Shown: one piece after another, positions 10,002 through 39,955 of the stretch | Numbering within the stretch: position 1 is the first letter of the stretch | Layout: each line of letters begins with the position of its first letter | Source: a virus | Taxonomy: Duplodnaviria; Heunggongvirae; Uroviricota; Caudoviricetes | Length of the DNA: 41,055 bases | IMG/VR virus record: IMGVR_UViG_2529293142_000021 | Location: 1 to 41,055 of that record | Reading direction: 5' to 3' (one strand) | The notes under the pieces: generated by a model | The model's database searches: none | What the model saw: only the letters and a program-made list of their open reading frames with translations | Told to the model about the DNA's origin: nothing | Made by a program: the position numbers and the translations under genes

Positions 10002-10265
10002 CAATAATCACCCACCGGGGCTATATTCACCGAACGCCAGCAAAATCTGGCGTCGGGATTGGTCTCCCGGATATCTACTCAACGCATACCGCGTTAAGCG
10101 GTTTTTTATGCGTAAAGCACGGCTACACCCGCGAGTTATGGTGGGCTGTGTGAGGGCTTCTTAGGAAGCGCCGGGTTTGAGTAGCCGGTAAGACCAACCT
10201 TGCACAGTTCACCACCAGTCGATTGGTCTCGACGGTGGTGATGGTTAACCCACCGAGGTGACGCT

Positions 10266-35229: not shown

Positions 35230-35640
35230 ATGAACGACGCACAGGATATAATGCTCGGCCTGGGTGATTTTATTTTTGCTATATCAACAGTCGCCTACAA
35301 TAAATTACAGCGTAGTGATTCATGGCGCTGGGCTGAACAAACCAGATTCAGGAAAAATGACGCGTTGCAAATGACGGGCCGCCCGAACCCAACAATCACT
35401 ATAGACGGTAAAATAAATGCCTTATTTTTAGACGGTTGCGGGATTGGGTTATTATCAGATTTGCGCGCCCTGGGTAATGAGGGCAACCCCCAGCAGCTGG
35501 TGCTGGGGACTGGTAAAGTCATGGGCTATTGGGTTATTAAAGACCTGAATGAAACGCAAAATAGTTTCTTTATGGGCGGCACCCCAAAAACGCAGGATTT
35601 TACGTTAACCCTGCAATATTATGGCGCTTCATTAGACTGA
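35230..35640 (+). CDS. tail protein U-like
   Basis: 136-aa ORF after the tape measure gene, as P2 U. Confidence 0.7.
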   Translation: MNDAQDIMLGLGDFIFAISTVAYNKLQRSDSWRWAEQTRFRKNDALQMTGRPNPTITIDGKINALFLDGCGIGLLSDLRALGNEGNPQQLVLGTGKVMGYWVIKDLNETQNSFFMGGTPKTQDFTLTLQYYGASLD

Positions 35641-35861
35641 ATATCTTTTGGCTTTTTATCGCCGAAAGCGGCCCATAATATTAATATAATCCACATCAGG
35701 AATATCCAGCCAAAAAGAACATTTAATATTACTACCATGGTGCAGCTTTTATGCCCTCTCATTAACGCAATGATTAGCGGAATAACATATAAAATAATGG
35801 ACGCCAATGGGTTAGCCATGAGCCAGATATACAGGGCTACAATCCATGTGAAAATTTCCAT
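35619..35861 (-). CDS. small inner-membrane protein, Imm-like
   Basis: 80 aa from MEIFTWIVALYIWLMANPLASIILYVIPLIIALMRGHKSCTMVVILNVLFGWIFLMWIILILWAAFGDKK; two predicted TM helices; AT-rich; antisense to all surrounding tail genes. The resemblance to T4 Imm-type proteins is from memory. Confidence 0.5.
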   Translation of the reverse strand: MEIFTWIVALYIWLMANPLASIILYVIPLIIALMRGHKSCTMVVILNVLFGWIFLMWIILILWAAFGDKKPKDIQSNEAP

Positions 35862-35879
35862 ACTTGGAACCTCATTATT

Positions 35880-36095
35880 ATGACAATCACATATACGACG
35901 CGAGACGGAGATCGGCTCGATCAAATATGCCTCGCGGTTTACGGGCGAACCCGCGTTACTACAGAGACTGTTTTATATCAGGTTTCAAACTACGGCGTAA
36001 CAGATATGTGCGCTGTGTTCCCTGCCGGGCAGATCATCACATTGCCGGAAATAGAGCCTGAACCGATTAAAAAAGAAACTCAATTATGGGACTGA
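35880..36095 (+). CDS. tail protein X-like
   Basis: 71-aa ORF directly upstream of the gpD-like gene. Confidence 0.55.
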   Translation: MTITYTTRDGDRLDQICLAVYGRTRVTTETVLYQVSNYGVTDMCAVFPAGQIITLPEIEPEPIKKETQLWD

Positions 36096-37142: not shown

Positions 37143-38977
37143 TCGCAGTGGCAAAAATATCAGGGGTGTACGCAAACGGACTCGGCGAGCCGGTGCCGGG
37201 TATCAATTTAGTGTTAACGGCTCGCGCAACCAGTTCCGGCGTGATAATGACAACGACGGCAGCGCAGCAAACTGGCGCGGGCGGTGAGTACTGTTTTGAA
37301 CTCCAGCCGGGTGTTTACGTAGTCACCGCCAGTGGTGCGTATCTCGGCGTGATTACCGTTAACCCGGATAGCGTCGACGGCACGTTAAACGCGTATTTGA
37401 CAAATTTCAGCGCGGACGAAATGACGCCAGCGGCGCTGGCGGAGGTTCAGGAGCTCGTTGCCACAGCACAAGCCGCCGCCAGTGTTGCCAGCGGTGCCGC
37501 AACGGAAGCCAGGCAGAATGCCGCCGCCGCTGCTGCTGCTGCGCAGATTTCGACGGCAGCGGCAGGTAGCGCCCGATTTGAGAATTTTGACGAAATTATA
37601 AATATTAATACAACAGCAATGCTGGAGCTGGAAAAGCCGGAGGTGTTAGATCCGGATATTACTATAACTATCACAGAGACGATTAATTATGACTACGTTG
37701 GTCCGGTAAACGGATTTTGCGACGTTGCCAGCCCGCTTGAATATAAAATTCAAATGTACGCCTACACAACAGGCGAATATTTTAACGGCGAAACAAATTT
37801 AACGGCAGACGGTAAGTTTTATTTTAAGCGATCATGGGCCGGTGCAAAACAATTCAGGTTGGTGCGCATAGCAGATAGTAAATGGATCACTACGCTGGAA
37901 TATCCATTGTGTATTAGAAGCTACTGGATGCCCGATGATGCCGATCCTGCGGTCGTCAAAACAATGAAAGATCGTTGCTATACATATGATCAAGCGGTCG
38001 CCGCCATGGCATTAATGGTCCAGCAGCATGACGCGGTGGAACGCTACGTCGCCGGGTTATGCGCGCTGGTAGAAGACGCTGGCGGGGTTAAATTTTACGT
38101 TAACAGGCTATCAGCTCAATCGCACCGAGCTTATTACAGGATGGGTAACGTGGCCTGGGTTTTATATGCTCTCGCATTCTATCTGCATAAATTCCCCACT
38201 GGTGACCAGGTTGCTACTGTTCGTGAGAAAATAGCGGCTGGATGCACTTGGGTTGATACGTTCAGAGTTATCACCCCCGGAGATCCGCGCGAGGGGCTAT
38301 ATATGGGGGGGAGTGGTAAATTTTACGACGGCGGCACCGTTTTTGATCCGGACTATATAGCAACGTGGTGCGCACTTGAGCATAACGTTGATATTTATTT
38401 TCTGTTCGAACTACTGGGCAGAATATCGGGATTCGAGAGTTACAAAAGCAAGGCGGCAGATCTGGCCGCCGATATTATTGAAAAATTCTGGATTGAGAGC
38501 GAAGGGCGTTTTCGCCAAGGGGTGCACGAAGACGCCCCGGACAACGTTGCTGCGTTAGATCAATCGAGTTGGGGCGGGATTTTTGCTGCACACGTTGATC
38601 CTGACAAGGCCGTGAGGTGCAGGAAATACATGGAAAGATTTAGATACGGCACACAGGAATGCGCTGGATATACGCCATATGATCTTGACCAGGGGTATTC
38701 CACACAAAAACGCGGCGTGTGGTGCGAGGGGGTGGGTGGTGTCGCGCTATTTGAGCGCCTGCTCGGTAATGAGGAACGCGCAATTGAATTGATAGCAGGA
38801 ATGACCCCACTCAGAAACAAATACGGGTATCGCGATTCATGCATGGATCCAACATACGACACGCTGCCAAATTGGCCCTCAACGACAAACACCGGCTGGA
38901 TGATTTTATGTTGTCAGCCCAGTGGTTTTTGGAACGTAAACGCCCCAAAACTAAGCATTGGGATCGTGAGATATTGA
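37139..38977 (+). CDS. tail fiber or tailspike with possible enzymatic C-terminal domain
   Basis: 612 aa; N-terminal about 100 aa resembles prophage tail-fibre N-terminal domains, then Ala-rich coiled segment, then a Trp/Tyr-rich helical C-terminal domain of about 400 aa. Confidence 0.55.
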   Translation: MIAVAKISGVYANGLGEPVPGINLVLTARATSSGVIMTTTAAQQTGAGGEYCFELQPGVYVVTASGAYLGVITVNPDSVDGTLNAYLTNFSADEMTPAALAEVQELVATAQAAASVASGAATEARQNAAAAAAAAQISTAAAGSARFENFDEIININTTAMLELEKPEVLDPDITITITETINYDYVGPVNGFCDVASPLEYKIQMYAYTTGEYFNGETNLTADGKFYFKRSWAGAKQFRLVRIADSKWITTLEYPLCIRSYWMPDDADPAVVKTMKDRCYTYDQAVAAMALMVQQHDAVERYVAGLCALVEDAGGVKFYVNRLSAQSHRAYYRMGNVAWVLYALAFYLHKFPTGDQVATVREKIAAGCTWVDTFRVITPGDPREGLYMGGSGKFYDGGTVFDPDYIATWCALEHNVDIYFLFELLGRISGFESYKSKAADLAADIIEKFWIESEGRFRQGVHEDAPDNVAALDQSSWGGIFAAHVDPDKAVRCRKYMERFRYGTQECAGYTPYDLDQGYSTQKRGVWCEGVGGVALFERLLGNEERAIELIAGMTPLRNKYGYRDSCMDPTYDTLPNWPSTTNTGWMILCCQPSGFWNVNAPKLSIGIVRY

Positions 38978-39040
38978 GGCAAATTGTCGGGAGTTTTTCC
39001 CCATTTATTCCCCAATAATTCCCCGTACAAAAACAGGCAT

Positions 39041-39067
39041 AAAAAAACCAGCCGTAACAGGCTGGTT
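39041..39067 (-). terminator. rho-independent terminator, minus strand
   Basis: Minus-strand ACCAGCC tgttac GGCTGGT followed by TTTTTTT, directly 3' of the tRNA-like fragment. Confidence 0.5.
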
Positions 39068-39080
39068 CTTAAGGTGTTTT

Positions 39081-39133
39081 TGGTCGGCACGAGAGGATTT
39101 GAACCTCCGACCCCCGACACCCCATGACGGTGC
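39081..39133 (-). other. tRNA 3'-half fragment (anticodon arm CAU, T-arm, acceptor 3' strand, CCA)
   Basis: Minus strand reads GCACC GTCATGG GGTGT ... GGAGG TTCAAAT CCTCT CGTGCCG A CCA. No complementary 5' acceptor strand or D-arm upstream, so not a complete tRNA. Confidence 0.4.
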
Positions 39134-39300
39134 GGGGCGTTCGGTGTTTGCATTTTGCAATTTTGCGAAAATGTAAATTAATTGTATTAATGCGTCATTA
39201 TCTGCAGATTTATAAGCCTGCCCCGATGAAAAAGCGGTTATCAAAACTCAAAAAGAGTTATCGCAAAACAAGCACTTGCAAACCATCTCAAATGATGTGA

Positions 39301-39332
39301 TTTATTAAAATATTTCCTGATATTTTAATAAA
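39301..39332. repeat. perfect 13-bp inverted repeat near the prophage-chromosome junction
   Basis: TTTATTAAAATAT ttcctg ATATTTTAATAAA, about 35 bp before the icd-homologous junction. Confidence 0.4.
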
Positions 39333-39364
39333 TATCAGTTAGTTGAAATTAAACCATCAAACTA

Positions 39365-39529
39365 CTGTTACGCCATATGGGCTGGACTGAAGCCGCAGAC
39401 CTGATTGTTAAAGGTATGGAAGGCGCAATCAATGCGAAGACCGTAACCTATGACTTCGAGCGTCTGATGGAAGGCGCTAAACTGCTGAAATGTTCAGAAT
39501 TTGGTGATGCGATCATCAAGAACATGTAA
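39365..39529 (+). pseudogene. icd: 3'-terminal fragment of isocitrate dehydrogenase gene (icdC-like)
   Basis: Translates to [53 protein letters not shown], which is the Icd C-terminus; no upstream icd sequence. Typical of e14-type integration at icd. Confidence 0.85.
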
Positions 39530-39552
39530 TCACTACATGTGTTTAATATTGC

Positions 39553-39584
39553 AACGGGCGTATAACACGCCCGTTGTTTTATTT
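39553..39584 (+). terminator. rho-independent terminator after the icd fragment
   Basis: AACGGGCG tataaca CGCCCGTT followed by a T-run. Confidence 0.6.
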
Positions 39585-39631
39585 ATGTAGGTATTATTAA
39601 TAGCATATCGAGCATATTTATATAAAACCCT

Positions 39632-39955
39632 TTACTTGAGCCCATATGGGCATATTTTTATAATGCAACTATTATGCAAACATTTATTTGTTATTTTTCT
39701 TTCTCCTGGAGGACACTCTTGACTGCTTTTGAGTAGACTCCATAAATCCTTGTTGAATGGTGCGATGTTATAAATAGTAATAGGATATTCTTTATCTTTA
39801 AGGATAATTCCAGATTTAACCGGTGTAAATATACTGCCAGGAGGGAGAAATATAGTAGATTGATACCAGATGATCATTTTCATATTACCCCATATGGCTG
39901 AAAAAGATATGCCGCATGAAGGTTGAATTATCGTGTCAATTACTATCCACTTCAT
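39632..39955 (-). CDS. iraM: IraM-like anti-adaptor protein
   Basis: 107-aa [21 protein letters not shown]...; matches my recollection of K-12 IraM, which lies just beyond icdC; low GC. Confidence 0.5.

Follow-up and report, generated by a model that had tools for sequence, protein, structure and literature searches.

In phage lambda, the phage attachment site (attP) consists of a core placed between a P arm, which carries the arm-type sites P1 and P2, and a P' arm, which carries the three adjacent arm-type sites P'1–P'3. In Escherichia coli K-12, the prophage-end pseudo-tRNA fragments pawZ, ptwF, and pauD are displaced bacterial halves, which lie at the cognate tRNA locus and are followed by the native flank. 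Phage 21 and e14 are described as integrating at icd (Hill et al., 1989; Wang et al., 1997, both as cited in PMC12803456). The present analysis concerns a 153-bp block with sharp edges (38982-39134) in a 41,055-nt stretch of DNA from a virus of the Caudoviricetes (IMG/VR record IMGVR_UViG_2529293142_000021, positions 1 to 41,055 of that record; hereafter, the window). A tRNA 3' part, a terminator of the phage type, and three GGGGAA repeats of 11 bp in tandem make up the block. It is likely a non-functional, still pristine remnant of the attachment (att) site of proL-integrating enterobacterial temperate phages, which was left by integration-module exchange in a prophage that is now located at icd.

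The tRNA-derived portion of the block, which reads CGCACCGTCATGGGGTGTCGGGGGTCGGAGGTTCAAATCCTCTCGTGCCGACCA on the minus strand (39134-39081), showed 54/54 identity with linear positions 24-77 of proL upon alignment to the native gene, a 77-nt tRNA-Pro(GGG) gene located between yejM and narP and called "tRNA-Pro (ggg)" by ARAGORN. When positions 39145-39030 were used as a BLAST query, 56 nt matched annotated tRNA-Pro with 100% identity in 5426/5426 complete E. coli genomes, and the chance expectation in shuffles for a 28-mer with ≤3 mismatches was 0.00. An earlier note on this DNA, made from the sequence alone, had pointed to a tRNA-Met or tRNA-Ile origin, which is superseded by this match. The loop GUCAUGG with anticodon CAU described there was read two bases out of register, as CAU corresponds to C32-A33-U34, directly 5' of G35-G36-G37, and the longer anticodon-arm hairpin drawn there was formed in part by flank bases (CCCCG) that pair by chance with GGGGG of the variable region. 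The tRNA 3' portion that was recognized on the minus strand is nevertheless genuine and comprises the anticodon stem-loop, the T arm, and the acceptor 3' strand with CCA (Table 1). The absence of a 5' half was stated correctly with respect to the 5' acceptor strand, which is missing, and to the D-arm, which is nearly all gone from 39081-39134; three bases of the D-stem (CGC) remain. A complete tRNA overlooked by eye was ruled out by ARAGORN, which found 0 tRNA genes in the window, by the Rfam tRNA model, which scored 15 bits on the relic (below the gathering score of 29), and by a comparison of the upstream 48 nt with the tRNA 5' half, in which shuffled sequences did equally well (p=0.70). The native proL promoter region is missing at the relic in the alignment to native proL, and no sigma-70-like site was predicted on the minus strand within 38800-39700. 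The relic possesses neither the complete cloverleaf nor the promoter of its own that a functional tRNA-Pro gene has. On the basis of these comparisons, it should be labeled as a putative tRNA-Pro(GGG)-derived att relic (core plus P' arm) and not as a tRNA gene, a Met/Ile fragment, or a small RNA (sRNA).

The terminator that the earlier note placed after the tRNA portion was reproduced by RNA folding, which predicted a GC-rich hairpin and a U tract on the transcribed strand at 39041-39068, as in a Rho-independent terminator. The stem GAACCAGCC/GGCUGGUU(U) comprises 8-11 bp, the 6-nt loop is UGUUAC, and the hairpin ends in a U7 tail; the whole 121-nt segment folds with z=-3.74. A simple terminator consensus scan did not flag this hairpin, probably because the stem runs into the T run. 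The relic terminator is homologous to the native proL terminator and shows compensatory stem changes (CCAGCC/GGCTGG versus native CCAACC/GGTTGG), and the downstream part of the relic is 96% identical to the tRNA-downstream sequence of the prophage-occupied proL in E. coli LP50-1 and ~89% identical to native flanks. This predicted terminator is the one that the phage brings in place of that of proL, and it belongs to the att P' arm. The previous description of the locus as a tRNA half with a terminator was correct for these two components and overlooked the three arm-type repeats at 38993-39025, with which a whole att half-site is present. The pattern of three GGGGAA repeats is unique in the window (chance expectation 0.00), and GGGGAA-type repeats occur in all phage copies of the block and not in the native proL flank. 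These repeats are best read as candidate arm-type binding sites of a proL-type lambda-family integrase, because their flavor co-varies between the two arms, they follow a 3+1 layout, and the integrases possess a lambda-type arm-binding domain. At the outer edge of the block, which lies 5 nt from the stop codon (38975-38977) of a tail-fiber gene, the BLAST matches to Phi06_2987, Flotzy, Eeyore, and EC2641 end together at window positions 38981-38982 (query 682-683). Weak Rfam matches over the block (isrK-like, E=0.16; STnc50; HPnc0260) were far below the gathering scores and are attributable to the terminator and T-arm hairpins. The isrK-like match lies on the plus strand (38979-39071), opposite the relic over the P' arm and terminator, and reached 17.4 bits where the gathering score is 50; the hairpin is its probable cause.

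The same block is found in phages and prophages that use proL. In the phages Flotzy (PP925827) and Eeyore (PP925821), it is located ~140 nt downstream of a co-directional lambda-type integrase gene, and because of this position the block is read as their attP. In E. coli EC2641 and LP50-1, prophages at yejM-proL abut an intact proL, and the block constitutes its 3' end, its terminator, and the following repeats; this layout would be exactly that expected from integration in the anticodon loop with a phage-supplied tRNA 3' half. The window block shares with these att sites the tRNA segment, the terminator, the three GGGGAA repeats, and the outer boundary, and is 83-96% identical to them over 153 bp. 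At least 119 IMG/VR contigs contain an exact match to a 43-mer taken from the tRNA part, although exact matching favors perfect copies. In ~21 of the IMG/VR copies examined, a lambda-type integrase gene ends 135-160 nt upstream on the same strand. The canonical P arm spans ~140 nt and contains conserved central elements (…TTGATGTATATAG…CACTGTTTG..TATACA…) and one copy of the arm-type motif, which is positioned directly after the int stop codon and is of the same flavor as the three P' repeats, namely GGGGAA in both arms of Flotzy, Eeyore, and the copies L098 and L039, and TGGTGAAA in both arms of L029. The second P'-repeat flavor, (A)TGGTGAAA or TGGCGAAA in place of GGGGAA, was also observed in L030, L064, L066, L111, L116, and others, ~55-90 nt 3' of the tRNA end; together with the paired copy in the P arm of L029, it implies at least two arm-site specificities among proL-targeting integrases.

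In copies that are not complete, the exact match to the tRNA always breaks off in the 5' strand of the anticodon stem, at 2-12 nt past the anticodon. These end-points would fit a crossover in the anticodon loop, which is reportedly one class of sublocation within tRNA genes. Like lambda attP, the proL-type site possesses three tandem P' repeats, to which Int (integrase) presumably binds, and is accompanied by an integrase with a lambda-type N-terminal arm-binding domain. One motif copy was found in the proL-type P arm, whereas lambda has two (P1 and P2). Unlike that of lambda, the proL-type core is a tRNA anticodon stem-loop, and the site carries a terminator after the 3' end of the tRNA. Searches of the literature yielded no specific account of proL as a bacterial attachment site (attB) of phages or of module exchange involving att relics. 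As far as these searches show, the proL-specific attP appears to be common yet little described.

Table 1. Coordinates of the proL-type relic, of its component parts, and of the flanking features in the window.
Feature	Position	Strand	Remarks
Prophage integrase, lambda-type, icd-targeting family	740-1867	minus	Pfam PF09003 (N-terminal Arm-DNA-binding) and PF00589
Tail-fiber gene, 612 amino acids	37139-38977	plus	PF08400 prophage tail-fiber N-terminal domain
Outer end of conserved P' arm block	38982-38992	minus	Homology to other att units ends there
Three tandem 11-bp direct repeats CGGGGAATTAT / TGGGGAATAAA / TGGGGAAAAAC	38993-39025	minus	Candidate P' arm-type sites (P'1-P'3-like)
Short trailer and intrinsic terminator	39041-39080	minus	RNA fold; hairpin and U7 tail at 39041-39068
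tRNA-Pro(GGG) 3' portion ("O"/core segment of proL-type att site)	39081-39134	minus	54 nt; linear positions 24-77 of proL
Acceptor 3' strand and CCA	39081-39091	minus	
T arm, GGAGG-TTCAAAT-CCTCT	39092-39108	minus	
Variable loop	between anticodon stem-loop and T arm	minus	
Anticodon stem-loop, complete	39114-39130	minus	GGG anticodon within 39120-39123
D-stem 3' strand remnant, three bases (CGC)	5' end of 39134-39081	minus	
Spacer, 37 nt, origin without match	39135-39171		Between relic and icd-type P arm; holds swap junction
AT-rich P arm of icd-type att site (attR arm)	~39172-39370	plus	32% GC over 39135-39355
Conserved motif GCGGTTATCAAAACTCAAAAAG	39234-39255		In icd-type P arm
Second motif copy GAGTTATCGCAAAAC	39255-39269		In icd-type P arm
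icd core and displaced icd 3' end (icdC-like)	39371-39529	plus	Prophage right end (attR); open reading frame 39377-39529
icd terminator hairpin	39551-39577		Between iraM and relic
iraM	39632-39955	minus	Chromosomal, then ycgX

The window block retains the proL-type core, identical from the anticodon loop to CCA, and a P' arm composed of the terminator and three repeats. Unlike the attP of Flotzy and Eeyore, it lacks the conserved ~140-nt P arm and a cognate integrase directly upstream on the same strand, and lies instead beside an icd-type right prophage attachment site (attR). The 5' flank of the relic contains none of the canonical P-arm elements and was a singleton among the 5'-flank classes, which comprised one canonical cluster of 39 and 40 others. 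The integrase at 740-1867, the only one found in the window, lies 37 kb from the relic. It is 26% identical to Flotzy integrase (Int), 79-80% identical to the enzymes of vB_EcoM-689R6 and Kp4865-4, and ~58% identical to those of phage-21-like phages carrying an icd 3' copy; judged from these identities, it is not the cognate enzyme of the relic.

Like phage 21 and e14, the window prophage ends at a displaced icd 3' fragment near iraM and encodes an integrase of the same family. The icd fragment is 96.8% identical to that of phage 21, and the right flank is 99.5-99.9% identical to E. coli chromosomes in which icdC, ymgK/L, iraM, and ycgX are annotated. The displaced fragment, the icd-family integrase, and the shared P-arm motifs are those of an icd-type attR, and the left attachment site (attL) lies outside the window. 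The relic is placed ~240 bp from the icd core, directly beside the P arm of this phage 21/e14-type attR. In that arm, the motif GGTTATCAAAAC(T)CAAAAA is found at the same distance (~140-150 nt) from the icd core as in vB_EcoM-689R6 and the fEC.1 icd prophage. The two direct GTTATC-containing copies at 39234-39269, the first of which is conserved, may serve the icd-type integrase as arm-type or accessory-protein sites. In the e14-like elements vB_EcoM-689R6 and fEC.1, an mcrA-like HNH gene lies outside the P arm, whereas the proL relic occupies that place in the window. The spacer at 39135-39171 showed no similarity to the tRNA 5' half, canonical proL P arms, complete E. coli genomes, or phage records, and the junction 33-mer was not found in IMG/VR. 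The AT-rich flank (39135-39345) had no match in 5426 E. coli genomes or the phage database, and neither the exact relic/icd-arm junction nor the AT-rich arm was found in any complete E. coli genome, phage record, or IMG/VR contig. A 58-amino-acid open reading frame (ORF) on the plus strand (39124-39300) begins at an ATG that is the complement of the anticodon-loop CAT and extends as far as the AT-rich arm; this ORF is probably spurious.

On the other side of the block, the large C-terminal part of the tail-fiber protein matched no Pfam family. Its closest relatives, from E. coli GF43 and one IMG/VR contig, show 76-77% amino-acid identity, and the exact 612-amino-acid sequence is not on record in a large protein collection. 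In the relatives of the tail-fiber gene (GF43 and L167), homology is lost right past the stop codon.

The recurrence of the fragment in related prophages, which had been suggested as a check, was observed in the icd prophage fEC.1, in three ssrA prophages, and in Gifsy-2, which has one copy. The fEC.1 prophage contains two unannotated copies 1.2 kb apart (L007, 5026 and 6198) with a cargo gene between them, and an mcrA-like gene separates these copies from the icd arm. At ssrA, the prophages of E. coli HS, 2016-17-550, and C 237-04 carry the copy one or two genes away from that gene. All of these orphans are unannotated and present the same core-plus-P'-arm (O+P') block at a cargo end while another integration site is in use; they are located one or two genes from the active att site and contain indels or substitutions, whereas the window copy is intact and close to the icd core. 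In IMG/VR, the clear orphans were 10 contigs with ≥2 kb upstream and no integrase of any seeded family; when integrase adjacency was scored with lambda-type seeds alone, orphans were overcounted, and broader seeds detected other integrase families in L052, L081, and L110. In the BLAST-found orphans, a set that was not selected for perfect matches, indels and substitutions affect the tRNA part, the core, and sometimes the terminator, and both the terminator stem and the U tract of HS-type orphans are mutated; these orphans therefore look as non-functional relics should. In L023, two relic copies (2624 and 6079), one of which is degenerate, lie 3.5 kb apart with a SRAP gene and a 606-amino-acid ORF between them. 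The paired copies in fEC.1 and L023 look like serial accretion of att-bounded cargo at the tail-fiber end.

A further family of orphans keeps a recognizable, strongly diverged tRNA 5' half (…TGGCACATAGC…GGTTGCGCACCGTCAT) ~45 nt 5' of a tRNA piece with a perfect 3' part. This family includes L117, L040, L105, L014, L020, L025, L119, L051, L058, L096, and others, none of which was called a tRNA by ARAGORN. At the anticodon loop, diverged sequence gives way abruptly to perfect sequence, a change that could reflect either selection on the 3' part in lysogens or ascertainment bias from exact matching. The window flank falls outside this pseudo-tRNA family, the longest members of which end ...GCGCACCGTCAT, one base past the window identity, and the window copy may have been derived from the ...GCGCACCGTCAT family by truncation.

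Based on these comparisons, a likely history is proposed for the relic as a remnant of a proL-type att site. In a live site, the order on one strand is the integrase gene, a ~140-nt P arm with one arm-type site, the 3' part of the tRNA (anticodon loop through CCA), the phage-borne terminator, and the three P' repeats. Upon integration at the proL anticodon loop, the tRNA 3' part and terminator of the phage replace those of the host, which leaves proL intact and properly terminated. The window keeps the core and P' arm only, and an integration module from an icd-targeting phage has taken the place of the P arm and cognate integrase, presumably through recombination between phages. The relic would no longer take part in integration, and its terminator may incidentally stop minus-strand transcription that enters from iraM or, in the circular phage, passes over the att site. 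The suggestion of the earlier note that the fragment derives from a tRNA-targeting att site through module exchange in a prophage now at icd has held up well, as the same block forms the attP of Flotzy and Eeyore and the window prophage combines an icd-family integrase with an icd 3' fragment. Because the relic is unmutated whereas other orphans decay, a recent origin is suggested. The lineage may formerly have integrated at proL and later swapped its integrase gene and P arm for an icd module, or the imported icd module may already have been dragging the relic with it, as in fEC.1.

Several observations weigh against this history. No direct ancestor, in which the same tail-fiber gene would be followed by a complete proL attP and integrase, was found, and the block is wholly missing from the tail-module relatives GF43 (near zinT), L167, and L168. 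The data fit both former use of proL and import of a pre-existing relic with the icd module. The relic is perfectly intact in its tRNA part (54/54), terminator, and three repeats, a condition that selection for function would also give. Furthermore, compared with Flotzy-type attP, the identity to the tRNA continues for 8 more nt on the 5' side, as far as linear position 24. Because of these 8 extra nucleotides, a Flotzy-type attP is not the source, and the relic would have come from either an attL-type junction or the ...GCGCACCGTCAT pseudo-tRNA orphan family.

Among the alternatives, it is unlikely, though conceivable, that the block is still usable as an attL-equivalent recombination site for the proL-type Int and the Xis of a co-resident phage, with attR or attP as partner. 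Such use, which is itself improbable, would swap integration modules or cargo between phages or produce icd-proL chromosomal rearrangements. The block retains a complete attB-type core with the full anticodon stem-loop and all three arm repeats intact, O+P' blocks are joined to many unrelated 5' flanks with the break always ≤12 nt from the anticodon loop, and two copies bracket a cargo gene in fEC.1, with a second, degenerate copy in L023. However, all of the 60 canonical P arms retrieved are followed by the full tRNA-Pro 3' half, and the reciprocal P-O-X' junctions that an integrase-mediated origin at secondary sites would leave were sought among them and none was found. The unbiased orphans are also mutated in the core/overlap region and contain indels, and are thus not maintained as recombination sites, and for most of the flank classes the upstream sequence is too short to rule out that an integrase of a different family is present. 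It appears similarly doubtful that the O+P' blocks with unrelated 5' flanks, some of them arrayed around cargo, record a general integrase-assisted route of module swapping and cargo accretion.

Retention of the block for its terminator, with the tRNA part as a passenger, is quite improbable. In this case, the terminator would insulate the late/tail region from minus-strand read-through from iraM and the att region or would end int-side transcripts in the circular phage. The strong hairpin with its U7 tail, the compensatory stem changes relative to the native terminator, the retention of the hairpin in most phage copies, and the transcription of iraM (39955-39632) on the minus strand towards the relic are consistent with such a role. 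On the other hand, HS-type orphans have a damaged stem and U tract, the icd terminator hairpin (39551-39577) is already present between iraM and the relic, and the retained tRNA part and arm repeats with their sharp att-type boundaries would be unexplained.

It is very unlikely that the locus expresses a tRNA-like RNA or tRNA 3' half that has its own function, for instance as a regulatory sRNA or, against anticodon nucleases, as a decoy or repair template. The stable fold (z as given above) and the terminator at its end would suit such an RNA, whereas the minus strand has no promoter-like site upstream and lacks the native proL promoter, no Rfam family reached threshold, copies elsewhere decay, and an att half-site accounts fully for the structure. 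The prophage sRNAs svsR and co293 of icd prophages were considered and are unrelated to the relic; svsR lies at the 3' end of cI. Like pawZ, ptwF, and pauD, the relic is a tRNA 3' fragment that arose at a prophage boundary from site-specific integration; unlike them, it is a phage-borne half at a non-cognate locus, with neither the native flank nor the cognate locus of a displaced bacterial fragment. Derivation from a displaced chromosomal piece of the host proL, as an attR-type pseudo-tRNA or a rearrangement product, is extremely unlikely, although the tRNA part matches the host gene perfectly, and is effectively refuted by the phage-type downstream sequence (96% identical to the phage-supplied flank of LP50-1 and ~89% to the native one), by GGGGAA repeats that native proL loci lack, and by a location at icd-iraM-ycgX instead of yejM-proL-narP.

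Other features of the prophage were also noted. At 10034-10219 on the plus strand, in the prophage early region, two Rfam families are matched over their full length side by side, namely the Hfq-binding RNA isrK with 66.9 bits and the antisense RNA C4 with 71.3 bits; each match exceeds the gathering score of its family, and this segment is predicted to be a P1/P7-type antisense immunity or anti-repressor control region. A 101-amino-acid ORF with a superinfection-immunity domain (PF14373, E=1.6e-11) is encoded on the minus strand at 35619-35924, against the grain of the P2-like tail genes between which it is placed (a 136-amino-acid ORF at 35230-35640 and a tail-protein-X-like ORF), and looks like an inserted moron. 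A gene for a DUF7424 protein occupies 1-696 on the plus strand between the left end of the window and the integrase gene; the icd-side junction attL is outside the window, and the gene is probably cargo located between attL and int, in the manner of ymfD, ymfE, and lit of e14.

Att fragments that derive from tRNA genes are already well known, as is the mosaic exchange of integration modules, and the window provides a cleanly dissected further example. The comparison defines the anatomy of the proL attP, in which an anticodon-loop core is combined with a phage-borne terminator and 3+1 arm repeats that co-vary in flavor. In the window prophage, the relic marks a mosaic joint between the tail-fiber end of the phage and an imported icd integration module. 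Orphan halves of this type, which are scattered in prophages at icd, ssrA, and other sites, could be used to trace module exchange and to set prophage boundaries.

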